Of a stretch of DNA of 24,000 nt, positions 2 to 23,676 are shown piece by piece. This DNA comes from Acaryochloris marina S15 (GTDB taxonomy: Bacteria; Cyanobacteriota; Cyanobacteriia; Thermosynechococcales; Thermosynechococcaceae), in the NCBI RefSeq assembly GCF_018336915.1, contig NZ_CP064923.1, positions 5,380,924 through 5,404,923 of the forward strand. Reading direction: 5' to 3'. A program made the translations under genes and the position numbers. The notes under the pieces are model-generated. The model saw nothing but the letters and a program-made list of their open reading frames with translations, was not told the origin of the DNA and ran no database searches. Every line of letters starts with the position of its first letter. Within the stretch, counting starts at the first letter, position 1.

Positions 2-928
2 CCATCCAGTTTGTGGAACTGGGTGCAATCCGTGGGTAACAAAGCTCAGCAGGAATTAGAAGCTCAACTCAACGCTCAATCATCAGGGACTCAGGCCCCT
101 TGTGAAGCGATTTCAGAGATGTTATCTGCTCTACCTTTGGCCATTGCCGCCGATGGTGTGATGGTCCCCTTTCGCCCCACCCCGAACTCACCCAAGGGAA
201 AAATCCAGTGGCGAGAAGTCAAAGTCGCCATCTTAGCTCGCCTGGGAACACGGGTTACCCGAGCTAAAAAGGAGGTCCCCCAATTACTGCGTCGAAGACT
301 GGTGGCAGTATTGGGCGATATCGACCAGTTCATCCCTTTACTTCAACTCGAAGCTCACAAACAAGACTTTGAATCTGCTCCAAAAGTCATCTGGCTCAGT
401 GATGGGGGACGAGGCTTCTGGCGAGTCTATCGCACCTTGTTCTCTCATTGTGCTGTGGCAGTCCTCGACTTTTTTCATTCAGCAGGCCATCTGGCACGAG
501 CAACTAAAGCGATGTTTGGAGATGCCCGCTCTGCTCAAGCCCAAGCCTGGTTCCGGCACTGGCGACACCAATTGCGACACGGGCAACACCTACTTGTATT
601 ACGGTCCTTGACGATATTGATTCACTCACAACTGTTAACGGGAAAGTCTTTTTCAACGTTGCTCCAGGTGCAGGCTTATTTCCAACGCCATCATAACCAC
701 ATCCGTTATCGGCACTTTGAACAGCAACAGATTCCTCTCGGGTCAGGAATGGTTGAAAGTGCATGCAAGTGGTTGATTCAGCAGCGCTTTAAGGGAGTTG
801 GCATGCGCTGGAGTGAGGATGGTTTCAACCATTTACTGATCTTGAGAATTGCCTGGGTCAATGAACGGTTTGACTCCTTATTCCCAGAGGTGACCATTCC
901 GAAAACTAAGGCATCCCCGATCCGCTAA
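2..928 (+). CDS. ISKra4-like DDE transposase, C-terminal ~305 aa (5' end lies outside the window)
   Basis: The frame is open to the window edge. The C-terminal motifs resemble ISKra4-family transposases as I remember them: WLSDGGRGFW, LDFFHSAGHL, and GSGMVESACKWLIQQRFKGVGMRWSEDGFNHLLILRIAWVNERF. The internal ORFs 91-333, 369-611 and 504-764 are shadow frames. Confidence 0.7.
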   Translation, partial: PSSLWNWVQSVGNKAQQELEAQLNAQSSGTQAPCEAISEMLSALPLAIAADGVMVPFRPTPNSPKGKIQWREVKVAILARLGTRVTRAKKEVPQLLRRRLVAVLGDIDQFIPLLQLEAHKQDFESAPKVIWLSDGGRGFWRVYRTLFSHCAVAVLDFFHSAGHLARATKAMFGDARSAQAQAWFRHWRHQLRHGQHLLVLRSLTILIHSQLLTGKSFSTLLQVQAYFQRHHNHIRYRHFEQQQIPLGSGMVESACKWLIQQRFKGVGMRWSEDGFNHLLILRIAWVNERFDSLFPEVTIPKTKASPIR

Positions 929-3004: not shown

Positions 3005-4334
3005 CAGGGTAAGCGCAAGAAAATCAAGCCTCTGAAAGGCTAGACTGTAAAGGAATAGAAGCGCCTAGAACTTTGAGCATATACGCTTCATCCATGCTCG
3101 CCCGTTTTAGTTTTTGACGGGTACTTTTCTTAAAGGACGTTTCTTGATTGAGAAGGTTGATGCTCCAGCGCCTCAGGATGGCCATGTTTTCCGGTGCATG
3201 TCCTGTGCGAATGCGGCTAGCATCTTCGCCAAAGGTCACATCTAAGACCCAGTGGAGTTGGTTCTCAATCGACCAATGCTGGCGGATGGCTTTGCCCAAC
3301 TGCTGAGCATTTGGCGGTAGAGAGCTGATATAAAACATCACCTCATAGGTGGTTTTGTTCCACAAGTGGCGGGTCCGAGCGACCTTGACGATGGTTTGCA
3401 AGCCCTTCCACTGCGCCTGCTTGTAGAGAGGACCCATCTGTTGAAGGGACACGGCCCAAACTTGTCGTTTCTCGCGACGATGGTGCCCTGCTTCCACCCG
3501 GGCATCATAGCTGTGCTCAATGCCCTTAAACTCATTCGCTTCAGCCGTTTCAAACCATTGCTCAACCTGCTCAAACAGCGTGGGATGATTCTCCTTGAGG
3601 GCCAGCACATAGTCAGCCTCTTTAGCTTGAATGTGGCGGGCAATCTCGTGCTGAGTTCCCATTGCATCAATGGTAATAATGCACCCGGCAATGTCTAATA
3701 GCTCTAGCAGTGCTGGAATAGCGGTAATTTCGTTACTCTTGTCTGCAACTTTGACCTGTCCTAGAAATAACCGATACTCACTGGCCCAAGCACTGACCAG
3801 ATGCAATGCGGATTGGTCTTGATTGCGATCATAGGAACCTCTGAGTTGTTTGCCGTCAATCGGTATCACTTGAGCGCCGAGGGTTGTCACTACCTGATCC
3901 AACCAGTGATTGAAACTCCGCTCAAAAGCGGAGGGGCAAATACGCTCAAACACTCGTCGATAGGTGTCTGCTGTCGGTATCCCGGACGGTAGCCTCAGAA
4001 AACTCGACAACCAATCTTGATGGCTTAGACCATAGGTTTCAATGTCTTCCCACCCTTGTGCGCCACCTAAACTTGCCAATAGTCCAATCACGACGATGCT
4101 GACAAACGGATGCTGGACACCTTGGCCTCCACGTGGATCAGGCAAATCTTCAAAACACTCGGACAATTGTTGATAAGCCTGATCGCAATCACTGGCAGGC
4201 AGGAGTGACGAGGATGAGTCAGTGGAAGCTGGTGAGGAAGGAGGCTTGCTGAATCCTGTAGCCATGGGGAAACCCTTTTAACAGAATGGAGTTCCAAAGC
4301 ATATTACAGCTTCATTTTTCTTGCGCTGCCCCTG
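3005..4334 (-). mobile_element. complete ISAs1-family insertion sequence (~1330 bp)
   Basis: Left end CAGGGTAAGCGCAAGAAAAT (3005-3024). The reverse complement of the right end (4314-4334) is CAGGGGCAGCGCAAGAAAAAT, giving 17 matches over the first 19 positions. It carries a single intact transposase ORF and is flanked by a 10-11 bp direct repeat. Confidence 0.9.
3024..4265 (-). CDS. ISAs1-family (H-repeat-associated) DDE transposase, 413 aa, intact
   Basis: Motifs LPDPRGGQGVQHPFVSIVVIGLLASLGG, IPIDGKQLRGSYD, KSNEITAIPALLELLDIAGCIITIDAMGTQHEIA, RQHWSIENQLHWVLDVTFGEDASRIR. Confidence 0.95.
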   Translation of the reverse strand: MATGFSKPPSSPASTDSSSSLLPASDCDQAYQQLSECFEDLPDPRGGQGVQHPFVSIVVIGLLASLGGAQGWEDIETYGLSHQDWLSSFLRLPSGIPTADTYRRVFERICPSAFERSFNHWLDQVVTTLGAQVIPIDGKQLRGSYDRNQDQSALHLVSAWASEYRLFLGQVKVADKSNEITAIPALLELLDIAGCIITIDAMGTQHEIARHIQAKEADYVLALKENHPTLFEQVEQWFETAEANEFKGIEHSYDARVEAGHHRREKRQVWAVSLQQMGPLYKQAQWKGLQTIVKVARTRHLWNKTTYEVMFYISSLPPNAQQLGKAIRQHWSIENQLHWVLDVTFGEDASRIRTGHAPENMAILRRWSINLLNQETSFKKSTRQKLKRASMDEAYMLKVLGASIPLQSSLSEA

Positions 4335-4344
4335 GTTCTATTAG
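4334..4344. repeat. target-site duplication, right copy of the ISAs1-family IS
   Basis: Exact repeat of 2994-3004 lying directly outside the right inverted repeat. Confidence 0.85.
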
Positions 4345-4385
4345 ACCTGCGGAACACTTTGTTTTAGATTGCCAGTGAGGTGACT

Positions 4386-4407
4386 GTTACGTCTTTAGAG
4401 ACGTTAC
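4386..4407 (+). other. imperfect hairpin 14 bp upstream of the Y1 transposase start (possible IS200/IS605-type or REP-like subterminal structure)
   Basis: GTTACGTCT-TTAG-AGACGTTAC: a 6-bp perfect core (ACGTCT/AGACGT) extended by two more pairs across one T-T mismatch. Confidence 0.3.
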
Positions 4408-4420
4408 TTAGAGATGCTCC

Positions 4421-5200
4421 ATGCCACGTCATCCGCGAACGCTGAAACCTAGCTATTGCTATCACATCACCACCCGCTGTAATAATCGTGACTTTCGGTT
4501 AGTGCGGGAAGAATGTCGGGATGTTTTGCTCTATGCCATTCATAAATGCCAGGTCAAATATGGTTTTAAGCTGTATGCCCTCTGCATTATGAGCAACCAT
4601 GTCCATTACCTGTTGGAACCTGCCCAGCCCCAGGACCTGCCCAAAATCATGCACTGGCTGAACTGGTATACGGCCATGTGTTTTAACCGGATGCTCAATC
4701 GCAGTGGGCACTTCTGGGAAAAGCGCTATCACAGCACGGGGTTTCCGAATACGGATAAGCGACGGGCGTTGAATACGCTGCGGTATATCCATGCCAACCC
4801 GAAAGCGGCGAAGATGCAGCAGGGCTTTTTCTATGATTACAGCAACTATGGCAGCTATGAGCGGCTAACCAATGACGGAATTAGCCAATGGCATCCAGCT
4901 TTTCTGGCGTTGGGAGCGACAATTGAAATTTGTGCTCGGGCTTATCGGCGCTTTTGCCAGCGGTACAAGCCCAAGCCCAAACCACCCAAGCGCATTTATT
5001 GGGGCACGAACCTATTGGCGAAGTTGAGGTTAAAGCGGAAAGTCCATAAACCATCCCCTGGACAAACTCGGTTGCCTTGGGATGATTGGGATGGGGTAGA
5101 CCCAGAGATTCAGGCAGTGGCGATGAAGTTTGTGTTGGCAAATTGCTTAAACCCGGAGGTGGTGAAGACTCGATATGAGCCTGATTTTATACAGTTATAG
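4421..5200 (+). CDS. HUH-Y1 tyrosine transposase, IS200-like / REP-associated (RayT-like), 259 aa
   Basis: YHITTRCNNRDF, the HUH motif SNHVHYLL (His60-Val-His62, nt 4598-4606), GHFWEKRYHS, and the catalytic Tyr region LRYIHANP. At 259 aa it is longer than classical IS200 TnpA and fits the COG1943/RayT-like group better. Confidence 0.8.
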   Translation: MPRHPRTLKPSYCYHITTRCNNRDFRLVREECRDVLLYAIHKCQVKYGFKLYALCIMSNHVHYLLEPAQPQDLPKIMHWLNWYTAMCFNRMLNRSGHFWEKRYHSTGFPNTDKRRALNTLRYIHANPKAAKMQQGFFYDYSNYGSYERLTNDGISQWHPAFLALGATIEICARAYRRFCQRYKPKPKPPKRIYWGTNLLAKLRLKRKVHKPSPGQTRLPWDDWDGVDPEIQAVAMKFVLANCLNPEVVKTRYEPDFIQL

Positions 5201-5316
5201 ATAAAAAATTGGGTTTGCTAGGTGCCAGGTAAGGAATCGCTAAAAGGACGGGTTTTATGTTGATCTGAATGTGGAAATGAAATTTAAAAATGCTCAGGAC
5301 TGTCTCGTGCTACAGT

Positions 5317-7581
5317 CTACAAGTCTTTGCGCGAGAGAAGAGATTGCGCGAGAGAAGAGAGAATACCCAACGGTAATTCTCCCTCAAATCCAAACGGTAA
5401 TTCTCCGTCAAGAGAATTTTCGAGATCGTATGTTGGATTTTGCCACTTGCCATTGTTTGTCCAGCCGATGCGATCGCAGAACGTTCTTGTAAACTCATTG
5501 TAATCTGTCGGGCTTCCGCACTCTTCCCAAATCCGTTTTTGAACACTAAAGCCCCACTTGCCATCGCTGTACTTAACCCACAGACGATCCAGCATTTGCA
5601 AATCGTCGCAGGGAAAAGTCTTTAGGTCATCGCTATTCAAATATTGCCCTTCTTCTTTCCCCACGGTGGTAATCATCAACCGATAGGTCTCCTGGTCGGC
5701 TTCACGCCATTGTTGGGTTTGTAGAAGCGTCTCTAGGTTGGCATATCGAGACGTTTCAACTTGGGAGGTAGTTTTTTCAAATGCAGCCAATTCCTCTGCA
5801 GTTAAGTCCAGCCGTTTGGTAGTGTCTTGCTGGATGGTATAGGCCAAATCAATGGCCTCTTGGCGCAAAGCTTCCCGAATCAATGGCGTAGGGTTGACCT
5901 GGGAGGCATAGAGCAAAATCGTCTGTTTCCACCAATCATTCTGGAGATGTTTATAAAGCAACGCTTCTTGCTTATCATCAGCAATCTGAGTGGCAGCCAA
6001 ATACTCTTGCAAACTGAGATGAGCGAACTCAAATTCACCCAATTCCCGCTCTACCAGCAATTCGCTAATTTGCACCACTTCTGCCAAGAAATTCTTTTGT
6101 TCAACTTGTTCCTGTTGCAGTTTTATATATTTCTTGATTCGTTCCTCTAGGTCAGAGTGACCCAACCGCTCCTCATGGGCTTCCATCATGGATAACGCCA
6201 ACCGTTGCAAGATAAGCTGGGCTTCACAATCGATTAAACAAGTCTTCAGCTTTCGTGCCCTTGGCCGGTCTCGAAGCTGTAACGTACAAATCTCTCGATA
6301 TAGTTCAACCCTGCGTTTAGGTAACTCTGCGCCGGGATATCGCCAATGGAACGACACAATCATATTCAGCAAGAGTGGATTTCTGGCTAAATCCTTCAGC
6401 TCTTGCCGCGCTTCAATTTGGGTTAGCAGTTCCTCAGCGGCAGTTTTTGCAGCATGCTCAACGTCGGGAGTCAACTCTCCCCCACTGGCATATTGCTCTT
6501 GGTACAAATACCAATTCTCTACAAAATTTCGGCGTTGGGATTCGCTAAAGTCTTGCACCCAAAGGATAGGAAGTTCCAATCGGTCGACTAGCTCCTGATC
6601 TTTATAGGCTTTAGGACGTGAAGTGACTATAAATACTGATTTGCTGTAATGGCGCATCTGATCATTAATCCATCGAGCCACCACCGGACGTTGCCCAGAG
6701 GCCACCTCATCGAAGCCATCCAGCATTACCACTGCTTCACCTTGATTAAGCTTCTTTTTAACCCAATCTTTTGGTAAATCAGCTAACTTATCAAAATCCG
6801 GCAAATCTGGAATATGGTGATTTCTAATCAACTCCGGTAAAGTCGGTGGTTGCTCTTGAGCCAATAGGTCTCGATGTTTACGCAGCACCAGCAAAAAAGG
6901 GACTCGTCTGGGTACACCGTATTTACCTTGTTGGTTCATGCCATAGGTATAGGCAATATGCTTTAGCAGCGTCGTTTTGCCATAACCACCCCAAGCCAGT
7001 ACCCCAATTTGGCTGTGGGTCATGAAGTTTGAGTCTTTCCAGGTCTTACTCAGAAAATCCCAAATTTCACTCTCCTGCATCTCATTAAAGGAAAGCTTTG
7101 TAGGATGTTGCATAGGAGACTCTCTCAAACCCGACGGTAAGGAGTTCCGGTCCAATTGCAAAGGAACATAAATCTCCTCCAGTAGAGGCCGGAAAATGCC
7201 ATCGTGTTGAATCACCCCTTCAGATTTCTGGCGACGGCAAGCCCAAGCTTGACATCGAAAATACTGTTCTTCTACGCCACTAACTTTAGCAATGCCATGA
7301 TCAATCGCTTTATTGGCTGCTTCTCCTGCTTTTGTTAGGCGATCTTGAGTACCTTTATGAACCGGGTTTAGCAAACTGGCTCCATAGGAAATCCCCAAAC
7401 CAATCACCCCAGATGCCAAGGCTTTGGGGATATCACTATCATTGAACAGAGACCAAAACGCACCTGCTCCACCTACCGTCACCCCGCCTGTCCGTACTGC
7501 TTTAACAACAACATCTGCAATCTGGTCACTGAGAGAAACCTTAGCTTTAGGTTTTGGAGTAGGTTTATCAGTCTTGGTCAT
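5317..7581 (-). CDS. NACHT-family STAND NTPase with Gly-zipper-like hydrophobic N-terminus and C-terminal GUN4 domain (754 aa)
   Basis: Walker A VLAWGGYGKTTLL (nt ~6970-6993) and Walker B AVVMLDGFDEV (nt ~6705-6733), followed by IVTSRP and a helical/winged-helix region. The C-terminus READQETYRLM...LKTFPCDDLQMLDRLWVKYSDGKWGFSVQKRIW...FCDRIGW matches the GUN4 signature (nt ~5376-5760). The N-terminus carries GGVTVGGAGAFWSLF and ALASGVIGLGISYGASLL (nt ~7356-7521). Confidence 0.85.
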   Translation of the reverse strand: MTKTDKPTPKPKAKVSLSDQIADVVVKAVRTGGVTVGGAGAFWSLFNDSDIPKALASGVIGLGISYGASLLNPVHKGTQDRLTKAGEAANKAIDHGIAKVSGVEEQYFRCQAWACRRQKSEGVIQHDGIFRPLLEEIYVPLQLDRNSLPSGLRESPMQHPTKLSFNEMQESEIWDFLSKTWKDSNFMTHSQIGVLAWGGYGKTTLLKHIAYTYGMNQQGKYGVPRRVPFLLVLRKHRDLLAQEQPPTLPELIRNHHIPDLPDFDKLADLPKDWVKKKLNQGEAVVMLDGFDEVASGQRPVVARWINDQMRHYSKSVFIVTSRPKAYKDQELVDRLELPILWVQDFSESQRRNFVENWYLYQEQYASGGELTPDVEHAAKTAAEELLTQIEARQELKDLARNPLLLNMIVSFHWRYPGAELPKRRVELYREICTLQLRDRPRARKLKTCLIDCEAQLILQRLALSMMEAHEERLGHSDLEERIKKYIKLQQEQVEQKNFLAEVVQISELLVERELGEFEFAHLSLQEYLAATQIADDKQEALLYKHLQNDWWKQTILLYASQVNPTPLIREALRQEAIDLAYTIQQDTTKRLDLTAEELAAFEKTTSQVETSRYANLETLLQTQQWREADQETYRLMITTVGKEEGQYLNSDDLKTFPCDDLQMLDRLWVKYSDGKWGFSVQKRIWEECGSPTDYNEFTRTFCDRIGWTNNGKWQNPTYDLENSLDGELPFGFEGELPLGILSSLAQSLLSRKDL

Positions 7582-7807: not shown

Positions 7808-8316
7808 ATTAGCCCCCTAAATCCCCCATTTTGGGGGACTTTGATTGTCGATCAATGCTTTGCTCACTCGCATATCGGATTTGCTGAAGTACATGATCTA
7901 GGTGGTGCATGACGTCTGAGTTATGGAATCGGATCACTCGGTAACCTAGCTGGTTGAGCTGCTCGGTACGGGCTTGATCATACTCCACCTGCTGATTGTG
8001 GATGTCGCCGTCTAGCTCAATCACTAACCGGCATTGGGGACAGTAAAAATCGACAATGAACGAACTAATGGCGTGTTGACAGCGGAATTTCAGGCCGCTG
8101 AGTTGACGTTTTTGCAGTGCTTTCCACAGCTTTTGTTCGGCTGGTGTCAGATTGAGTCTTAGTCGTCGTGCGGCGGCAACGACTGCTGGAGTCGTGCCGC
8201 GAATGCGGTGGTGTTGCGTTGGCTTCTCTCGCATCTTGTTACCCCCAACCCTGTCTCCCATCTAGGATCATCATAAATCTCAAAGTCCCCCAAAATGGGG
8301 GATTTAGGGGGCAAAT
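7808..8316 (-). mobile_element. candidate 509-bp cassette: DUF559 endonuclease gene bounded by 33-37 bp terminal inverted repeats
   Basis: 7812-7844 (GCCCCCTAAATCCCCCATTTTGGGGGACTTTGA) is the exact reverse complement of 8280-8312. Pairing extends to 7808-7844 / 8280-8316 with one mismatch. I could find no target-site duplication, so mobility is only an inference. Confidence 0.35.
7809..8261 (-). CDS. DUF559 / Vsr-like (PD-(D/E)xK fold) endonuclease-domain protein
   Basis: RRLRLNLTPAEQKLWKALQKRQLSGLKFRCQHAISSFIVDFYCPQCRLVIELDGDIHNQQVEYDQARTEQLNQLGYRVIRFHNSDV is the canonical DUF559 pattern. An alternative ATG lies at 8234 (MREKPTQ...). The last 11 codons are encoded by the left inverted-repeat arm. 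Confidence 0.9.
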   Translation of the reverse strand: MGDRVGGNKMREKPTQHHRIRGTTPAVVAAARRLRLNLTPAEQKLWKALQKRQLSGLKFRCQHAISSFIVDFYCPQCRLVIELDGDIHNQQVEYDQARTEQLNQLGYRVIRFHNSDVMHHLDHVLQQIRYASEQSIDRQSKSPKMGDLGG

Positions 8317-8800: not shown

Positions 8801-10009
8801 TCAATCGTATTGAACAACCAATTCCAACCCCTTCGCCCCCCTCAACCGAAACGCATTCAACACAATCGGATCCTTTAACTCCAAATCTGCAGTCGGATCA
8901 TAATCCTCAAAATAAGCCGCAGCAGGCGCATCCCCATCTAAAAACTGAATCACCGCATCTTCCCCAAACCTTTGCTTCGCCACCGTCAAACAATCCTTCA
9001 TCAACAAAGACGGCGTAATCATAGAGCCCACATACGCCTTCGTTTCCTCATCAAACACCCGAATCCCCCGCGCCACCGACTGGGTTTCATGCAGCAAAAA
9101 CGGACCACCCCGCTTATACTCCCCCCGCTCCAACACCGCCTCAATATCCTTCGGCTGGCGAATCACCCCATGGGTATCAATCGTGACCATCGCCACATCT
9201 GGTTGGGCCTCCAGCTGCTCTAGCTCCTTGCGAATTTGCCCCTTAATATCATCCAGTCGCTCATTACTGGTCTTCCCCTCCCCTTCCAGATCACTGAAAT
9301 CCAGATAAGCCGACCGCCCATCGGCATAGGTCACCAACCCCGACAACAGAATATTGGGGGCAGATTGCCCAGAAATCTTGGAAGAACGATAAACAGGCAA
9401 ATCCGTTTTACCCGCATTCTTCGGCAATCGATTGGGATTGAAATAGGCATAGCTAAGGGGAATCGATTCCTTCTTTTTGGTAAAGCCCTTGAACGTCGTG
9501 CCAAAAATCCCCAGCACCTTGCCCCCCGTGCTCTCCACCTCCGCTTTAACCGTCTTATAGCTGTGATCGGGCAATAGGGGCAAAATCACCGTGCCCGGTT
9601 TAGGCTCAAACACAATCGCCGGACCCTGGCCATACCAATTCAGCGGCGTATCCGTTAGCACCGACTTGCCTTCTATATTGGTGCGACCGGGCACGGGATA
9701 GGTTACATATTCTCGACCGTTATTATCAAGGGCGAACTGGGGTTTATTGCCGCGATACTGAAGGGGCGCAACGTCAACGGTTTTGATCACCTTCTTCCAG
9801 TCGAAGTCATAGTCATAAAAAGAAAGCTGAAACACCTTGCTCAAGGGCACAGCAGGCTTAGACGCTAAAGACTCATACTCAATAGGCATTGCTTCTAACC
9901 GAAAGGCATCGGGTTCAGAGGCTTGCTTACGCAAGAGGGTGCAATTCACCAATAGTGTTGAACAACCGATCAGCCCGATCAGTTGAATTGATGGAGCAAT
10001 CTTCACCAT
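8801..10009 (-). CDS. hypothetical lipoprotein, 402 aa, family not recognised
   Basis: N-terminus MVKIAPSIQLIGLIGCST has a signal peptide and a lipobox (LIGC). It lies 23 bp downstream of the rhomboid gene on the same strand, so an operon is likely. The ORF is long and uninterrupted, with strong G-ending codon bias. Confidence 0.7.
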   Translation of the reverse strand: MVKIAPSIQLIGLIGCSTLLVNCTLLRKQASEPDAFRLEAMPIEYESLASKPAVPLSKVFQLSFYDYDFDWKKVIKTVDVAPLQYRGNKPQFALDNNGREYVTYPVPGRTNIEGKSVLTDTPLNWYGQGPAIVFEPKPGTVILPLLPDHSYKTVKAEVESTGGKVLGIFGTTFKGFTKKKESIPLSYAYFNPNRLPKNAGKTDLPVYRSSKISGQSAPNILLSGLVTYADGRSAYLDFSDLEGEGKTSNERLDDIKGQIRKELEQLEAQPDVAMVTIDTHGVIRQPKDIEAVLERGEYKRGGPFLLHETQSVARGIRVFDEETKAYVGSMITPSLLMKDCLTVAKQRFGEDAVIQFLDGDAPAAAYFEDYDPTADLELKDPIVLNAFRLRGAKGLELVVQYD

Positions 10010-17372: not shown

Positions 17373-20300
17373 ATGAAAACATCGGTAGAACTCTCCCAGT
17401 CTGTCTTTGATCGTCTATTTGCCTTAATGGAGCAAGGGTTCTATCTCCAGGCCTATGAATTATGCCAATCCGTTGACCTGCTCGCGACCCGGCAAGACAC
17501 AGCGACCCAAATTTTGGCAGGCCGACTAGTCGGGTATCTGGGGGCACCCCGACAGCGAGCTGCTGTATTACTTCGAGCCTGGCGACAGAATCCTACCGAT
17601 CCAGACGCCTTGTATTACTACATCAGTACAAGGCTTTGGCGGCAGGGTCCCTTAGCTGCCTATCGTCTAATCCAAAAGTACCAACCGCAGTTTGAGCGCT
17701 TCACACCGGACCAACAAGCCCATTGGCTGGGGTTAAAAGCCCAGGTGGTTTTAGAATTCCGAGACTTTGATCGAACGGATGCCTATCTCCAAGAGGCAGA
17801 AACCCTAGCCCCAGACGATCCTTGGATCACCCTTCTCCGGTCTCGTCTGTTGGAGCAAGAAGATAACTATCCAGAGGCCTTGGCCATGACCCAACAGGCC
17901 TTGGCACAGCGCCCCTGGTATCGCCCTGCTGTATTGACAGCAGCCCATTTACATACCCTCTTAAGCCAAGATGACCAGGCACTGCACCTACTGCAGCAGG
18001 CCACTACTCAGCTCGAAAGTGGTGAGCTTTGGGCCCAATTGGCTGCACTTCAACTGGAGTTAGGGCAGTATGCCCAGGCTCAACACAGTTATCAGCAATA
18101 TGAACAAGCCTGCCCACTCCTAGAGAAGGCAGGGCAAGCCCGACTGTGGTCCGCCCAAGCTGACATTGCTTATCAGATGGCGGATTTTAATCACGCCCAT
18201 CACTTGGCTCAGAAATTGGCGGAGTATCCCTACTACCAGTCCTTAGCCCAACGCTTGCTGGATTTACCCGAGGGGAAACGGGTGATTTTGCCCGTCGGTT
18301 TTGTGCGCCAACACCACATGACTTGTGCCCCCGCCACATTGACCACCCTTTGTGCCTATTGGGGCATCTCGGTGGATCACCATCAGATTGTGGACAGCAT
18401 CTGCTACAACGGTACGTCTAGCTATAGTGAGCGGGACTGGGCCAGTCAACAAGGATGGGCGGTCTGCGAATTTACGGTTACCTGGGACAGCATTATCCAG
18501 CTGATTGATGCAGGCGTTCCTTTTACCCTCAGTACCGTTGAAGCCACATCAGCCCACTTACAGGCCGTGATTGGTTATGACAGCCGATTGCAAACCCTCA
18601 TGATTCGTGACCCTTACCACCGGGGTATTGTTGAACCCTGGGCGGAGGAGTTTCTAGAGCGGTATCGGGCATCCGGTCCCCGAGGCATGGTCATTCTTCC
18701 TGCTAAGAAAGCGGGACTACTAGAAACCCTAGAACTTCCTGACAGCCGTCTTTACGATCAGCTCCACGATCTACAAGCAGCGCTGCTCAAACATGATCGC
18801 TCCACAGCCAGTGACTGGAGCCAACGGATGAATGGGGTCGCTCCTCACCATCGCCTTGCCCTCCAGGCTCAGTTCGAGCTGGCTTACTATGATTCTGACC
18901 AAGCCAGTGGTTTGACCGTCATAGAACAAATGCTGGAGCAGTTTCCTGCTGCCCCACAGCTAATGTTGCAGAAACTTCAATACTTACAGGAACTGGCCAG
19001 CCGCCAAGATTGCCTCGATTGGCTCGCCCATATGATTGAGCAGGACCAGTTCCATCCCATTTTTTGGACTCGGCTAGCCAAACTCTTCAGTGACGATGCC
19101 AAGGCGAGTGAATCAGCCATTGGTCTGCTGCTGCGGTCTATCGGTGCAATGCCGACGGAAGCCTATAACTACTTTTTATTGGCTAACCTGTATTGGTCAC
19201 AACGCCAGTTTGACCTAGCCCTGGACTTATATCGGTTTGCAGCCTGTCTAGAAGATAAGGAGCAAACCTATGGCCACAGCTATTTTCTGGCAGCTCGGGG
19301 CTGTCGACAAACGTCTGTGGCCTTACAGCTCTTACAACAACGGTGGCACCGGGACCAAAAGCAGTCGACCCGTCCTGTTTATGCTTTGGCTATCGCCTAT
19401 GACCATTTAGATCGCCCGTCCGAAGCCATAGAGGTTTTGGAACAAACCCAAGCCTGGCACCCGGACGATGGCGATTTACTGTTATATCGGGCCAAGTACC
19501 TGGGCGAGCATGGTCAGTTTGCCCAAGCCCATACCCTGCTAGACGAGGCCAAAGCCAAAACAGCCCATAGTCATTGGTTAAGTACGGCTGCCAAACTCGC
19601 GCAGTTTGAATACAAGCCTGACAAAGCCCTCGACCTATGGCAACAGCTCGTCACAGCCGATCCTTTGGATATCGAGGCGAATCGCGCTGTCAGTCAACTG
19701 TTAGCAGAACAGGAAGGAGTCACTGCCGCCCGTGAGTTTTTAGCAGCCACCTGCAGCACCTTCCCTGACCATGCCGGGTTACATCACCTCTGGTATGAAC
19801 AGGTGCAAGAGGGAGATCCGATCGTCGCAGAACAGGTGCTGCAACGACTGGTGGAGATTAACCCTAAAGACGCTTGGTCCTGGCGACAGATTGCCTGGCA
19901 ATTGGGTCGACAACAGCAGCTAGAGGCAGCATTTGAAACCTGCGAAACCGCTCAGCACCTAGATCCTCACAGCACGGCCTATTTCACCATCTATGGGTGT
20001 CTCTGCATTTTGGCAAAAGACATGCCCACCGCTAAGACCGCGTTTAAAGAGGCGATTCAACGGTCTGTAGACTCTAGCCGAGCCATCTCAGAACTGATGG
20101 ATATTTGCCAGTCCATAGAAGAACAAAAAGACGTTCTCGACTTTATCTTTCAAGAGTTTCAGCAACAGGTGATTACGGGGGATAGCCTGTTCACCTTTTA
20201 TCAATACGCTCGCACTGTCTTGACGCCCGCAGACTTTGATCAACGCATACAAGAAGTTCATGCCGCTCGGCCCGATTTATGGCAGGCCTGGACCGTCAGG

Positions 20301-22430
20301 AGTCGGCAGCTCCTCAGCAGCGACCGAACAACGGAAGCCTTGGCAATTGCAGGGGAAGCAGCGGAGCGCTTTCCCCTCTTACCCAGAGTTTGGGTGGATT
20401 TAGCGATCGTGCATCGTACCCGCAAGGATGATGAGGCAGAAGAACAAGCCCTGCAAACCGCTTTACGAATTAATCCCGGGTGGGACAGCGCCATTCAACA
20501 GTTGGCGGATCTTTATGACCGCACTGATGCTCTAGACAAATGCAAAGCCCTGTTAGAAACAGCCCTGATGCATTCACCCCTGGAGGCCTATCTTCATGGC
20601 TATCTTGCAGATGCACTGTGGAAACTGGATGGCCAAGAGACCGCACTGCAGCACTTACAGAAGGCCCTTCGCCTTGATTCTAACTATGACTGGGGATGGA
20701 ACAAGTTAAGAGAATGGGCTCAAGCATTGGAGCGTCTGCATCTAACCGCAGATCTGGCTCGGGAGCTAACAGTCACTCGATCGGGAGAGGCCCAATCCTG
20801 GTTGCGGTTAGCTGAGCACCTGGCCGAGGAGGACACGCTGGATGAACGGCTTGCTGCTGTAGATCAGGCGATTGAGCTCAATCCTTGCTATTGGGATGCC
20901 TATGATTTGAAGGCTCGGGTGTTGGCAGCCGCGGAGCGATTTGAGGATGCGATCGCAACCTGTACTCCCACCCAATTAGATGATGACTTACCCGTATCCT
21001 TGGCAGCTCGGGCCGCTTGGATTAAATACCAGCAAGGCAAGTTTGACGAGGCCATCCAAGACATGCAGGCTGTGGTTGCCAAAGACCCTGGCTATTATGC
21101 GGGATGGTATACCCTGGCCGATTGGTATCGGCAACAAAACAACCTAGAAGGATATCTAACTGCAGCGCAACAGCTGGTGCGGCTAGCTCCCAAAGATGCC
21201 ATTTCGTGGGGATATCAGGGAGACGCTAAACACAAAACAGGGGATCGGTTAGGCGCGAAAGCAGATTTTCGCAAAGCCTTTGAACTAGATCCTGAATATA
21301 GCTTTGCAGGGTTGAGTCTATTTGATCTGGAATTAGAGGGCCTGGAGACTGAGTCAGCAGCAAAGACCCTAGCTCAATTAAGGGAGCAGGATAATGATGA
21401 ATTTGTCTTGGCTCGTACCGTCCAGTTAGCAGCCAGACAAAATGACCTTAGTACTGCCACTCAAACCTTAGAGAAACTGTGTCTCTATCCCTGCGACTCT
21501 GAATGGCCCTTGAACACAGCCGTTGAGACTATGATTGCGGCTAATTGGACCACTCAAGCCCAAACCATTTTATTTGACGCCTTCCCTCAGCCCAAGGTCT
21601 ATCCACAGGTCGGGCATCACTGGGTCTATTGTTGTGTCAAGCTGAAGCAGCAGAAATTTTGCCAGAAGCAATTACGTAAGTTCCATCCTGAAAATCCAGT
21701 CCAAAGACAGGCACTGATCACCTATATCCGAATTTTGTCTTATCGCAATTCTTCCGCTCCCCTGATGAAGTTTCTTAGGGCGAACCGTGACGTCTTGAGA
21801 TCGCACACTGAAACCTGGGGCATCGTGGGGTATGCCTTATCAGAACGGAAAGAGCACAAAATCAATCTCAAATGGTTATCCGATTGGAAAAATCGTAGTG
21901 AGGTGCAGCCTTGGATGCTACTCAATCTGGTTCAATCATTCCAAGCAACCAAGGATCCTGCTAACGCTATCCCAGTCAGTCAATATGCCCTCACACTCCC
22001 AGACGATGATGGCACCCCAGTCCATCGGCTCTGGTTAGCTTATGCAGCGAGCTATGAAGGGCAGACTGCCAAAGCCAGTCAATATTTGCAGGACATTAAT
22101 CCACAATATTTGGAAAAGGAATATCTGTTTCTTCAATATCTAGTGAAAGCCAATCTGGCGATTGACTGCCAAGAACTGCCCCGTCATCAGCGTATGGAAC
22201 AAGCCAAGTTACATGTCCAGCAAGCGATGGCTGTGCATCCCGAGTTTCGAAGTCGTTTTTATTGGCAGCATGTTTTTTCGAATAGCGTGTGGAGAATTGC
22301 TAAACGGCGTCAAAGTATCAGCGGTTATATCTGGGCTCTCTCCCAAAGCATTCCACCCGATATCTTCTGGGCCATTATCTATCTACTGGGAACGTTCTTT
22401 TTTCTCATCCTCAAAATTATGAATCCGTGA
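17373..22430 (+). CDS. giant (1685 aa) TPR-repeat protein with embedded C39-like papain-fold cysteine peptidase domain and C-terminal TM anchor
   Basis: TPR-like helical repeats run through most of the protein. The segment at aa ~300-440 (nt ~18273-18693), VRQHHMTCAPATLTTLCAYWG...GVPFTLSTVEATSAHLQAVIGYD...LMIRDPYH, fits the Peptidase_C39-like pattern. Candidate triad: Cys318 (18324-18326), His395 (18555-18557), Asp413 (18609-18611). C-terminal hydrophobic helix IFWAIIYLLGTFFFLILKI (nt ~22350-22418). Confidence 0.8.
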   Translation: MKTSVELSQSVFDRLFALMEQGFYLQAYELCQSVDLLATRQDTATQILAGRLVGYLGAPRQRAAVLLRAWRQNPTDPDALYYYISTRLWRQGPLAAYRLIQKYQPQFERFTPDQQAHWLGLKAQVVLEFRDFDRTDAYLQEAETLAPDDPWITLLRSRLLEQEDNYPEALAMTQQALAQRPWYRPAVLTAAHLHTLLSQDDQALHLLQQATTQLESGELWAQLAALQLELGQYAQAQHSYQQYEQACPLLEKAGQARLWSAQADIAYQMADFNHAHHLAQKLAEYPYYQSLAQRLLDLPEGKRVILPVGFVRQHHMTCAPATLTTLCAYWGISVDHHQIVDSICYNGTSSYSERDWASQQGWAVCEFTVTWDSIIQLIDAGVPFTLSTVEATSAHLQAVIGYDSRLQTLMIRDPYHRGIVEPWAEEFLERYRASGPRGMVILPAKKAGLLETLELPDSRLYDQLHDLQAALLKHDRSTASDWSQRMNGVAPHHRLALQAQFELAYYDSDQASGLTVIEQMLEQFPAAPQLMLQKLQYLQELASRQDCLDWLAHMIEQDQFHPIFWTRLAKLFSDDAKASESAIGLLLRSIGAMPTEAYNYFLLANLYWSQRQFDLALDLYRFAACLEDKEQTYGHSYFLAARGCRQTSVALQLLQQRWHRDQKQSTRPVYALAIAYDHLDRPSEAIEVLEQTQAWHPDDGDLLLYRAKYLGEHGQFAQAHTLLDEAKAKTAHSHWLSTAAKLAQFEYKPDKALDLWQQLVTADPLDIEANRAVSQLLAEQEGVTAAREFLAATCSTFPDHAGLHHLWYEQVQEGDPIVAEQVLQRLVEINPKDAWSWRQIAWQLGRQQQLEAAFETCETAQHLDPHSTAYFTIYGCLCILAKDMPTAKTAFKEAIQRSVDSSRAISELMDICQSIEEQKDVLDFIFQEFQQQVITGDSLFTFYQYARTVLTPADFDQRIQEVHAARPDLWQAWTVRSRQLLSSDRTTEALAIAGEAAERFPLLPRVWVDLAIVHRTRKDDEAEEQALQTALRINPGWDSAIQQLADLYDRTDALDKCKALLETALMHSPLEAYLHGYLADALWKLDGQETALQHLQKALRLDSNYDWGWNKLREWAQALERLHLTADLARELTVTRSGEAQSWLRLAEHLAEEDTLDERLAAVDQAIELNPCYWDAYDLKARVLAAAERFEDAIATCTPTQLDDDLPVSLAARAAWIKYQQGKFDEAIQDMQAVVAKDPGYYAGWYTLADWYRQQNNLEGYLTAAQQLVRLAPKDAISWGYQGDAKHKTGDRLGAKADFRKAFELDPEYSFAGLSLFDLELEGLETESAAKTLAQLREQDNDEFVLARTVQLAARQNDLSTATQTLEKLCLYPCDSEWPLNTAVETMIAANWTTQAQTILFDAFPQPKVYPQVGHHWVYCCVKLKQQKFCQKQLRKFHPENPVQRQALITYIRILSYRNSSAPLMKFLRANRDVLRSHTETWGIVGYALSERKEHKINLKWLSDWKNRSEVQPWMLLNLVQSFQATKDPANAIPVSQYALTLPDDDGTPVHRLWLAYAASYEGQTAKASQYLQDINPQYLEKEYLFLQYLVKANLAIDCQELPRHQRMEQAKLHVQQAMAVHPEFRSRFYWQHVFSNSVWRIAKRRQSISGYIWALSQSIPPDIFWAIIYLLGTFFFLILKIMNP

Positions 22431-22515: not shown

Positions 22516-23676
22516 TCAGTGTCGCTGGGCAGCAGTCATAGGGATTTGCAGCTGAGCTTGTAAAGGCTGATCGGATTCAATGACTAACCCTTGGCCTCCC
22601 TGTTGGTGACCATTTGCAGTATTAGGATGCGGCCAAAATAGCCAACAACTTCCTGGCGGTAATGCTGATATACCACTCGGATCAGCCGTCAGCCAGACAA
22701 CAGACTGTTGGGGAAGCGGCGCAACCGTCACTTCTCCGGCTTGCACTTGGGCGAGGGTTTCTAAGATGGCTTGTCGCCCCGTTTGCAACCCGATCTGGGC
22801 CGTCCATAGCTGCACCTGATCTTGATGCTTTTGGCCGTAAGCATAGAGAGACGCTGCGGCAATGACCGCTTGTTCAAACTGATCAGACTGCCAGTTACCA
22901 GAACTATCCAAAGCAATGACCAGGGTTTGCCCCCCCGCAAACATTTCCAGCTCGCGAATGCGCAGTTCATTATGGCGGGCACTGGTGCGCCAATGGACCA
23001 GTCGCAGAGGGTCACCCCAGCGATAGGGGCGAATTGACCGAGTTACCCCTTCATTATTGTTGTGGGGACCAATCTGTTGGGCTTGACGCTGGCGATCTTG
23101 CTCATGACCTGAATGATCTAGCAGGGGGCATTGCTGTAAGGGCAAGATTTGGGGATAGACAATCGCCTTGGCCTTGACGGGGCGACTCCGGCGACACCAA
23201 AACAGTCCTAAGGGTGCCGCACTTCGCAACTGTACATTTTGCCAACGATAGACCCCCCTTTGTTCCGGTTGAAGGGTATAGGTCCAGGTGTGGGTCGCTT
23301 GGGAAGGAATATCAGCAATGCTGTGAGCGGTGACGGCTCCCAGATTTTTGGGTGGGTGGTCCTGGACCTGTAACAGGGACTTCGCAGATTTGGTCGAGTT
23401 AGACAGCTTTAACCCTAAATTCAGGGATTCACCCACACTAACGGGCACTAGGGGCAGTCGCTCCACCTCCAACCCTTGCAAAGACTTAATCGGTAAAACG
23501 GCAGAGACCAATAACAGCCCTAACCCCAGTCCCCCTAGAACGTATAACCAGCCCGCTAGGGTATTCGCCGCAGCTAGCAAAAAAAATGTCGTGAGGCCCA
23601 AGATTACCCAACCCGCATAGGCTGGCACGGCCCAATGGGTTTCTAACCAAGAAGCGAGTTTATGGATGAGATGCAT
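22516..23676 (-). CDS. DUF58 domain-containing protein (vWA-like, MoxR-associated family)
   Basis: Two N-terminal TM helices plus the DUF58 signature IRPYRWGDPLRLVHWRTSARHNELRIRELE. It lies 30 bp downstream of the glcF-like gene on the same strand. Confidence 0.85.
   Translation of the reverse strand: MHLIHKLASWLETHWAVPAYAGWVILGLTTFFLLAAANTLAGWLYVLGGLGLGLLLVSAVLPIKSLQGLEVERLPLVPVSVGESLNLGLKLSNSTKSAKSLLQVQDHPPKNLGAVTAHSIADIPSQATHTWTYTLQPEQRGVYRWQNVQLRSAAPLGLFWCRRSRPVKAKAIVYPQILPLQQCPLLDHSGHEQDRQRQAQQIGPHNNNEGVTRSIRPYRWGDPLRLVHWRTSARHNELRIRELEMFAGGQTLVIALDSSGNWQSDQFEQAVIAAASLYAYGQKHQDQVQLWTAQIGLQTGRQAILETLAQVQAGEVTVAPLPQQSVVWLTADPSGISALPPGSCWLFWPHPNTANGHQQGGQGLVIESDQPLQAQLQIPMTAAQRH

Follow-up and report, generated by a model that had tools for sequence, protein, structure and literature searches.

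The stretch analysed here, 24,000 nucleotides of Acaryochloris marina S15 (contig NZ_CP064923.1) and called the window in what follows, carries on its minus strand, at positions 5317..7581, an open reading frame (ORF) of 754 amino acids (aa) that joins a NACHT NTPase to a C-terminal domain of the GUN4 fold, and our subject is this NACHT-GUN4 gene together with the DNA in which it ends. After the GUN4 core come, also on the minus strand, a hypervariable G/T-rich tract (5344..5394) and a conserved non-coding element of about 150 nucleotides (nt) in two blocks (5201..5343), which lies between convergent genes: the gene on its far side, which we call Y1, encodes a RAYT-like HUH enzyme of 259 aa on the plus strand (4421..5200). 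An earlier note on this DNA had placed the NACHT-GUN4 ORF at these positions, and its extent, strand and length hold by ORF calling, Pfam and structure prediction; the start is an ATG that aligns with the starts of homologues, and a 100% identical protein is filed at NCBI as 'GUN4 domain-containing protein [Acaryochloris marina]'.

The NACHT Module and Its Relatives

The NACHT core (aa 199-357; 6511..6987, minus strand) is recognised by Pfam, by its invariant columns and by Foldseek. The Pfam model NACHT PF05729 matches with E=2.3e-12 and 47.5 bits against a cutoff of 26.7, and both the Walker A motif (LAWGGYGKTT, aa 195-204, window 6970-6990) and the Walker B motif (VVMLDGFDE, aa 284-292, window 6706-6732) are invariant across 101 homologues. 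The helical and winged-helix part of the module follows, with a linker (aa 361-600; 5782..6501, minus strand), and is modelled by AlphaFold at a predicted local distance difference test score (pLDDT) of 85-96; DUF7755 and HTH_TANC1 matches reported by Pfam in the protein are both sub-threshold. The AlphaFold model as a whole, for which the input was an alignment of the 101 family members, has a mean pLDDT of 78 and a predicted template modelling score (pTM) of 0.72, most of the NACHT and GUN4 parts reaching a pLDDT of 85-97, and the best Foldseek matches of this model are NLRC4 (E=4.6e-11), NLRP3 and NOD2. AlphaFold and Foldseek together thus place in the protein a nucleotide-binding domain, helical and winged-helix fold resembling that of NLR proteins.

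We are confident in predicting, from these motifs and the modelled fold, that the protein is an NLR-like STAND protein of the bacterial NACHT type. In this, the canonical NACHT core and the tripartite layout proposed in the earlier note, with an N-terminal module, a NACHT and a C-terminal GUN4-fold domain, have stood up well, the Pfam NACHT and GUN4 models both being matched above their curated thresholds. At least 941 relatives were found, the best 120 of them all being about 750 aa long with 49-82% identity and 94-100% coverage; among species-representative genomes there are 267 relatives, nearly all of them in thin filamentous cyanobacteria and with one or two copies per genome.

A GUN4 Domain without the Ligand Motif

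The GUN4-fold core (aa 609-729; 5395..5757, minus strand), defined by Pfam and by profiles of known structures, ends at G-E-L-P. The GUN4 signature that had been read in this part of the protein is indeed present, far above the Pfam cutoff (PF05419, E=2.7e-32, 112 bits against 29.2, aa 609-721), and the core aligns with the crystal-structure sequences 7e2r, 1z3x, 4ykb and 1y6i (profile E=1e-16 to 1e-21) up to GHLP. The hydrophobic 'palm' residues of the domain are largely conserved, with W668, F678 and W707 invariant.

In true GUN4 proteins, GHLP is followed by L-x-N-x-L-R-G, in which Arg214 was described as 'absolutely essential' for porphyrin binding (PMC1084334) and Asn211 is needed for bilin binding, and motif-less cyanobacterial GUN4 paralogues have been proposed to have lost bilin binding (Rockwell et al., PMC10156173); these porphyrin- and bilin-binding residues were established in SynGUN4 and CrGUN4 (PMC1084334, PMC10156173). 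By a check anchored on GHLP through profile alignment to five GUN4 crystal-structure sequences, LxNxLR including Arg214 is present in none of the 101 NACHT-GUN4 members and in none of 36 independently sampled GUN4 domains linked to Y1, the window protein itself continuing from GELP into FGFEGELPLGILSSLAQSLLSRKDL (FGFEGE) where a true GUN4 has LxNxLR. Because this motif is missing, tetrapyrrole sensing is not inferable from the Pfam name, and the claim that the protein senses a tetrapyrrole has lost much of its ground; canonical sensing of this kind is improbable here, and it is unlikely that the GUN4 end works as a fixed tetrapyrrole sensor.

The alignments show instead that the GUN4 domain of the NACHT-GUN4 family forms a divergent class which, judged by its residues, has lost the porphyrin- and bilin-binding LxNxLR/Arg214 lid. 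Compared with the GUN4 cofactor of Mg-chelatase (1Y6I, 1Z3X, 4YKB, 7E2R), the window domain has the core fold and many 'greasy palm' residues in common, but it is without LxNxLR (Arg214 and Asn211), its C-terminal helices are replaced by the variable tract, and it is fused to a NACHT module whereas the cofactor stands alone. It is also similar to the 'paralog clade' for which Rockwell et al. proposed a loss of bilin binding.

A Three-Frame Stop Element at the End of the Gene

After GxLP, the proteins of the NACHT-GUN4 family continue with 14-66 aa of variable sequence, in which Gly, Leu, Val, Phe and Trp abound, and then close with one of three 'conserved' endings, SLLS[HR]xDL, LFSRxxTCxL or SSLAxRLVxCS. 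Three frames of one and the same stretch of window DNA read ...LFSRAKTCRL, ...SSLAQRLVDCSTRQS and ...SLLSRKDL, each up to a stop codon, and these are exactly the three family endings. The 3' end of the window gene also contains a perfect 17-nt tandem duplication (5327-5343 and 5344-5360) whose unit is read in two frames (SSLAQ, SLLSRK).

The endings come from block 1 of the element (about 5306-5345), which is readable in any frame and carries stops in all three: the TAG at 5317-5319, which is the one used in the window, the TAG at 5310-5312 and the TGA at 5294-5296. Block 2 (5221-5247) lies about 95 nt downstream of block 1. The window has TTCTCTTCTCTCGC...TGTAGC as block 1 and GATTCCTTACCTGGCACC as block 2, the corresponding consensus sequences being TTCTCTTCTCTCGCATCSAGACTTGTRAACTGTAGC, present in 63 of 76 loci, and TTTnnGnGATCCGTTACCTGGCACC, with conservation running on from the one block to the other. 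The ORFs end 22, 29, 36 or 45 nt into the element, and the three frames are used in the proportion 13:23:18. Among 98 non-redundant elements, stops stand at offsets 19, 26 and 33 of block 1 in 94, 97 and 66 cases, respectively, and in 86 of the elements no frame stays open beyond 48 nt, against the 12.2 expected from shuffles. At offset 19, the codon alternates between TAA, TGA and TAG across elements; since its spelling varies, it is the stop itself that is kept. Judging by these patterns of conservation, the tail of the NACHT-GUN4 family is constrained as DNA and not as protein, and its 'C-terminal motifs' are DNA signals.

A single copy of the element is present at each locus and likewise in the window, which speaks against a dispersed repeat, and a search of Rfam for a known RNA family at E<=10 returned only noise. 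Tandem duplications of block 1, partial or complete (35-70 nt), were observed at loci L019 (about 3050-3110), L046, L010, L074 and L078 and in the family members P0083, P0339 and P0342, where they give repeated read-outs such as SVAQRLLDCSWMSSLAQRLTHCSTRQS or GEVLFSRTLGEVLFSRAKTCRL.

The Hypervariable Tract and Strain-Level Diversity

We define the tract as the DNA between the GxLP codons and the element, and its statistics were taken over 70 non-redundant loci. Its length is 20-136 nt with a median of 52 and no preference for multiples of three, its composition is G 41%, T 33%, A 16% and C 11%, as against a G+T content of 52% in the adjacent GUN4 core, and half of the tracts contain homopolymer runs. 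Copies of the flanks are found inside 9 of the 70, with 0.15 expected. The tract of the window, translated as FGFEGELPLGILSSLAQ, is itself built from duplications of both flanks and short filler: besides the 17-nt repeat already described, a 22-nt repeat stands at 5366-5387 and 5390-5411 (24-nt spacing), within the last 30 codons of the ORF.

Between the window and A. marina NIES-2412, its closest relative, both flanks are 93-100% identical, whereas the tract is unalignable and different in length, and yet the synonymous divergence (dS) of 0.29 in the GUN4 core would lead one to expect about 75% identity there under neutrality. The same abrupt break, confined to the tract, was found in five further close pairs. 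Metagenome contig pairs such as L096/L170 overlapped the tract too little to be of use as strain variants. When full-length members were compared within protein clusters of 90% identity, the pooled share of differing positions rose from 3.3% in the NACHT module to 7.2% in the first half of GUN4, 18.3% in its second half and 70.1% in the tail, and this rising 3' gradient was seen in six of the seven clusters. The members P0095 and P0359, for instance, differ in 2 of their 735 leading residues and have unrelated tails right after GEFPGI, and in cluster 5, some 690 essentially identical residues are followed by ends in all three frames, some with duplicated read-outs of the element.

The gene as a whole also diverges strongly between A. 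marina strains, being 79-83% identical against 90-100% for seven syntenic neighbours. Its dS is 0.69 versus NIES-2412, with neighbours at 0.08-0.30, and 0.88 versus MBIC11017, where the neighbours range from 0.20 to 0.87 and the gene does not stand clear of them; overall, a ratio of nonsynonymous to synonymous divergence (dN/dS) of 0.13-0.17 indicates purifying selection. The alleles are mosaic: the N-terminus of the window protein is close to that of MBIC11017 (97% identity) and distant from that of NIES-2412 (68%), whereas for the GUN4 core the values are 67% and 92%, respectively. These comparisons support the view that the NACHT-GUN4 gene would evolve as a conflict gene and not as a housekeeping gene.

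In an Acaryochloris cluster (P0005 and P0327-P0333), the N-terminal allele types MTKTDKPTPKPKAKVSLSDQIADVVVKAVRTGGVTVGG... and MTTTDKPDPSSQPKISRSDQIADFLIKLVMTGGVTAGG... were seen shuffled against different GUN4 ends, and therefore recombination also touches the 5' end of the gene.

Y1 as the Recurrent Partner of GUN4 Fusions

In a clustering of the ORFs flanking 60 loci of the family, the Y1 homologue was the only recurrent neighbour, and it lies directly downstream of NACHT-GUN4. It was found at 13 of the 60 loci by this clustering and at 20 or more by tblastn, always convergent and about 100-200 bp from the stop. Many of the loci that seem to be without Y1 keep 40-100 nt of its 3' coding end, so Y1 must be ancestral and repeatedly lost. 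The exact Y1 protein of the window is present on only one other contig, again beside a NACHT-GUN4 gene.

Y1 matches the Pfam family Y1_Tnp and has 829 homologues of about 255 aa, which are 68-78% identical across cyanobacterial orders and occur mostly as one contig per cluster. In all 13 full-length copies, the HUH (NHVH), WE and RYIHxNP (RYIHANP) motifs are intact; by published signatures (PMC6006769), they belong to class 2, the RAYT-like branch of the TnpA-Y1 superfamily, and not to class 1.1, and the best fold match is 4er8, the E. coli RAYT-REP complex, with a root-mean-square deviation of 2.9 A. Across loci, no conserved sequence was found upstream of Y1, which therefore is not a two-ended insertion sequence (IS); the possibility of an IS200 unit of that kind was dropped, there being neither a conserved left end nor class 1.1 motifs. 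In the C-terminal half (aa 125-259), conservation is high and extends to many invariant Trp, Cys, Tyr and Pro residues; Pfam recognises nothing there, and AlphaFold models this half at a pLDDT of 25-50.

The link also holds when it is approached from the side of Y1. In four genomes of genera outside the NACHT set, the gene convergent with Y1 was a GUN4-domain gene in each case (GUN4 alone, caspase+GUN4, NACHT+GUN4 and kinase+GUN4), and all four have the same tract and element. Among 80 metagenome loci seeded on Y1 alone, 47 have enough downstream sequence, and 41 of these (87%) show a convergent GUN4 ORF within 600 bp; the partners in the 36 complete Y1-linked ORFs are NACHT (14), caspase (5), TIR (5), AAA_35 (4), CHAT (2) and kinase (1), the rest having GUN4 only. 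From these loci with their varied GUN4 fusions, it follows that the conserved unit is made of any N-terminal partner, a divergent GUN4, the tract, the element and Y1.

Two further observations concern the surroundings of this gene. A second, different Y1-type gene (about 222 aa, with RAYT-like motifs) occupies the downstream position at L024/L007, L056, L072 and L087, and in some metagenome loci, such as L146 (3119-3213 and 3387-3480) and L112 (1990-2860), the start of Y1 is closely preceded by repeats of 95-260 bp with 86-92% identity.

The N-Terminal Module

The first 100 residues of the NACHT-GUN4 protein (7282..7581, minus strand) form a family-specific module, a putative effector or anchor, that is conserved throughout the family. 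The earlier note had pointed to two Gly/Ala-rich segments here and called this end a membrane-type glycine zipper. The segments exist and are strongly conserved: both are Gly/Ala/Ser-rich and weakly hydrophobic (aa 32-46 and 54-71), a helix follows them, the spacing is of the small-xxx-small/GxxxG type, and the family consensus is GGxTxGGxGAFWxL...SDIPKAIASAVIGLGISYGAKLLxPIHxGN, with I60, G61, P73 and G86 invariant. The membrane nature fared worse, as no Pfam family, glycine-zipper or transmembrane, matches the module at E<=10 beyond noise, and AlphaFold leaves residues 1-74 conserved but unmodelled (pLDDT 31-43).

A profile search with the module against 1.84 billion representative proteins gave only 66 matches, and every long match checked was a NACHT+GUN4 protein, save for one spurious Ig-like surface protein; the module is therefore family-specific and not a portable effector shared with other systems. 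The slot it fills is a plausible effector position because sibling architectures carry TIR there. That the module is membrane-active is a tentative suggestion drawn from its composition, and we regard it as somewhat doubtful.

Neighbouring Genes in the Window

The DUF559 gene noted earlier next to NACHT-GUN4 was found again (MTES_1575-like endonuclease fold, Pfam E=7.6e-37; 7809..8261, minus strand, directly upstream), as were two transposase-type genes (3024-4265 and 4421-5200). DUF559 is upstream of NACHT-GUN4 in all Acaryochloris strains and at locus L058, three of the 60 loci in total, and with such a restriction to Acaryochloris plus one other locus, it is probably not a partner in the system. 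Of the two transposase-type genes, the second is Y1; the first, an ISAs1-type DDE transposase (DDE_Tnp_1 with DDE_Tnp_1_assoc; 3024..4265, minus strand) between Y1 and an HlyD-like fragment and PadR gene, has no counterpart at this place in A. marina NIES-2412 (L004) and is therefore a strain-specific insertion. The description of this region as a patch rich in mobile elements is thus weakened, Y1 being a conserved partner of this class of GUN4 and only the ISAs1-type gene strain-specific.

Within A. marina, the NACHT-GUN4 gene sits at a synteny breakpoint, and in other genera it lies among housekeeping genes in unrelated neighbourhoods with occasional toxin-antitoxin neighbours, so the comparison across relatives agrees with the expectation that it is no syntenic core gene. 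Defence models of PADLOC and NCBIfam match the window protein weakly (mad8 at 2.5e-4; DS8 at 9e-4, far below cutoff), and these matches are uninformative as to a defence role.

Elsewhere in the window, a protein of 1685 aa (17373-22430, plus strand) combines a Peptidase_C39-like domain with many TPR repeats beside a DUF58/BatD-like gene (22516-23676), and there are two conserved ORFs without a Pfam family, one of 402 aa (8801-10009, minus strand), syntenic and 93-96% identical across A. marina strains, and one of 305 aa (11-928, plus strand). Two contigs with NACHT-GUN4 genes, L013 and L079, are filed under the metagenome-assembled genomes Rhizobium sp. Q54 and Phycisphaeraceae, probably by binning contamination.

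Relation to Known Systems

The architecture has been catalogued before. NACHT+GUN4, TIR_2+NACHT+GUN4 and EAD1+NACHT+FGS+GUN4 are listed in clade 1 of the bacterial NACHT proteins (bNACHT; Kibby et al., Table S1, 10.1101/2022.07.19.500537), where the example of Baaleninema simplex, WP_083862248.1, has NACHT at 210-622, GUN4 at 637-773 and an unannotated N-terminus, and where GUN4 is predicted to be a 'photosynthesis-status sensor'; the same sensor argument was made for fusions of GUN4 with kinases, caspases, trypsin and TIR (Kaur et al. 2020, PMC7159879). With both the architecture and the sensor prediction in print, the hypothesis of the earlier note amounts to the published prediction, and its statement that no defence system with a GUN4 sensor had been characterised is weakened in so far as such proteins are catalogued (Kibby et al.; Kaur et al. 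2020). Clade 1 has the same domain order, NACHT fold, cyanobacterial distribution and predicted role for GUN4 as the window protein, but the bNACHT proteins tested for defence include no GUN4-bearing member, and the published prediction assumes the sensing of chlorophyll precursors, for which the binding motif is missing in the present family. The texts and tables searched on bNACHT and GUN4 fusions make no mention of the hypervariable tail, the three-frame stop element or the Y1 partner, and the literature searched contains no paper that names GUN4 along with RAYT, HUH or tyrosine transposases. Hence, the window protein is a new member of a catalogued architecture, and its 3' module is undescribed in the literature searched.

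Diversity-generating retroelements (DGRs) act on a C-terminal ligand-binding domain that is hypervariable at its extreme 3' end and followed by a conserved cis element. The GUN4 fusions likewise vary at their extreme 3' end ahead of a conserved cis element, and DGR variable proteins of cyanobacteria have the same N-terminal partners (kinase, caspase, TIR and STAND; Vallota-Eastman et al. 2020, PMC7517822). A scan of window ORFs of at least 100 aa turned up no reverse transcriptase, and no template-repeat-like copy of the tract was seen in 4200-5450. Unlike the targets of DGRs, the tract varies by indels, duplications and frame changes and not by adenine-specific substitutions, and its partner is a homologue of HUH nucleases and transposases.

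With the RAYT (TnpA-REP) enzymes (4ER8; Quentin et al. 2018, PMC6006769), Y1 shares the HUH NHVH, WE and YIHANP motifs, the low copy number and a C-terminal tail, but it differs from them in that its element is single-copy per locus, with neither a dispersed REP/REPIN family nor a conserved hairpin at the loci and in the window, and in that it is tied to a single class of protein-coding domain, beside whose 3' end it lies. As for PD-T4-6, the GUN4 half of one of its models (PADLOC-DB PDLC04062) matches aa 542-729 of the window protein (E=2.6e-36), and a Y1-linked kinase+GUN4 protein matches this model over its full length; PADLOC holds about 25 PD-T4-6 sub-models, derived from kinase homology, whereas the window protein has no kinase domain.

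Alternative Explanations and Counterevidence

We propose that the NACHT-GUN4 protein is a conflict sensor of the NLR-like type whose C-terminus diversifies rapidly, by a mechanism that we infer, and three other explanations have to be set against this. In the one offered by the earlier note, the sensing of a tetrapyrrole, or of a mimic, by GUN4 would make a glycine-zipper N-terminus perforate the membrane, as an abortive-infection switch guarding pigment metabolism. The confirmed GUN4 fold with its invariant palm residues (W668, F678, W707), the prediction already printed for this architecture, and a conserved N-terminus with GxxxG-type spacing in a slot that holds TIR in the sister architecture all agree with it, but the Arg214 and LxNxLR needed in SynGUN4 and CrGUN4 are present in 0 of 101 members, a would-be ligand lid that is hypervariable and indifferent to frame is hard to square with one fixed small-molecule ligand, the N-terminus falls below the usual transmembrane hydrophobicity without a transmembrane or glycine-zipper family match, and the neighbourhood of the locus does not look like a defence island; we hold this switch to be rather improbable. 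A second idea is that of a housekeeping regulator which ties chlorophyll or heme status to a response, the element then being a bidirectional terminator or regulatory site and the tail varying through low-complexity slippage. A family so widespread, at 50-60% identity and with constant architecture across many genera, often among housekeeping genes, with a dN/dS of 0.13-0.17 and homopolymer runs in half of its tracts, could be seen in this way; yet the gene diverges far more than its neighbours between strains, at synonymous sites too, its alleles are mosaic, the tetrapyrrole-binding motif is lost, sibling fusions with caspase, TIR and CHAT are typical of conflict systems, the element has no terminator-like consensus structure, and the tight linkage of Y1 (87%) has no place in such a model, which we judge very improbable.

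It might also be thought that Y1 and the element are an IS200-family-like selfish element with a preference for the 3' ends of GUN4-domain genes, leaving the tract as a functionless scar of insertion and excision: Y1 falls within the TnpA-Y1 superfamily, truncated remnants of it at many loci look like those of decaying transposases, some tracts hold flank duplications resembling footprints, and IS200/IS605 transposases have been noted near some DGR variable proteins of cyanobacteria (PMC7517822). The motifs of Y1, nevertheless, are those of class 2 (RAYT-like, domesticated) and not of IS200 class 1.1, the gene is low-copy, 68-78% identical across orders and intact in its catalytic residues, there is no second transposon end upstream of it, the element is single per locus and not dispersed, and neither the conservation of stops in three frames nor the gradient of diversity into the GUN4 domain would be expected of inert scars. 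Moreover, IS200/IS605 transposition is seamless and leaves no footprints, which speaks against the tract as a footprint. This selfish-element explanation, too, we consider rather unlikely.

Several observations count against our own proposal of a diversifying conflict sensor, and we suggest keeping them in mind. About three quarters of the NACHT-GUN4 loci, including that of MBIC11017, are without an intact cis Y1, and their tails still vary. Y1 and NACHT show an equivocal co-divergence, the Mantel correlation (r=0.375, p=0.006) being driven by the Acaryochloris pair and the Spearman coefficient being about 0. A REP-like covarying hairpin beside the stop codon was looked for and discarded as a general feature, with contiguous stems of at least 6 bp in 33% of loci versus 27% of shuffles, and RNAalifold on 60 sequences found no consensus fold of the element (E=0 on both strands), so that no REP-like recognition structure is demonstrated, even if a few lineages do carry 10-12-bp stems in the element. 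Avoidance of stop codons in a tail that is translated could by itself account for the G/T bias of the tract, and the polar gradient could stem from ordinary homologous recombination between co-existing alleles, with no dedicated mechanism. At the other end of the protein, the highest Kyte-Doolittle mean over 19 residues is 1.32 (aa 54-72), as against about 1.6 for a usual membrane span, and the first segment has only some 15 residues; an effector role or membrane activity of the N-terminus would thus be argued from composition and position. Finally, the match to PDLC04062 was set aside as evidence of a validated GUN4 defence system, since it covers only the GUN4 half of a kinase+GUN4 sub-model. 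Taking all this together, we give a probability of about 0.55 to the proposal of an NLR-like sensor in conflict whose C-terminus diversifies rapidly. On its parts, a conflict role of the NACHT-GUN4 protein is, from its sequence and that of its relatives, reasonably probable, and that Y1 causes the variation of the tail is doubtful.

Proposed Mechanism and Significance

By analogy with STAND and NLR proteins, the C-terminal GUN4-fold domain would hold the protein off until a trigger is bound, and nucleotide-dependent oligomerisation would then gather the N-terminal modules, whose action may be to perturb a membrane or to bring in a further factor. At the DNA level, the element, perhaps nicked or bound by Y1, would anchor local duplication, indels and recombination, and the resulting C-terminal variation would provide a fast-evolving recognition surface for a function in conflict or in the distinction of self from non-self. 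In its most specific form, which we put forward as a speculation that is unlikely as it stands, there would be a hitherto unrecognised diversification system in which a domesticated RAYT-like HUH enzyme and a conserved bipartite DNA signal make junctional variation in the would-be ligand lid of GUN4-type sensors. Such variation would consist of indels, flank duplications, G/T-rich filler and gene-conversion tracts with 3'-to-5' polarity, and the three-frame stop cassette would make every junction outcome translatable.

Two consequences hold even if the link with Y1 is not causal, namely that chlorophyll precursors are probably not sensed by the GUN4 fusions as they are by true GUN4, and that their 'conserved C-terminal motifs' are DNA signals and not protein motifs. 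The innate immune sensors of animals and plants are considered to descend from bacterial NLR-like proteins or to be analogous to them, and except for cases linked to DGRs, it is little understood how the sensor domains of the bacterial proteins follow targets that change. If the diversification system is real, it would let NLR-like, caspase, TIR, CHAT and kinase proteins, mostly those of filamentous cyanobacteria, renew their receptor repertoire quickly, a functional parallel to DGRs, to pilin antigenic variation and to V(D)J junctional diversity with different enzymology. And if the link with Y1 proves to be causal, it would be a new prokaryotic route to receptor diversification and a new job for the RAYT-like enzymes, whose role has been a long-standing puzzle.

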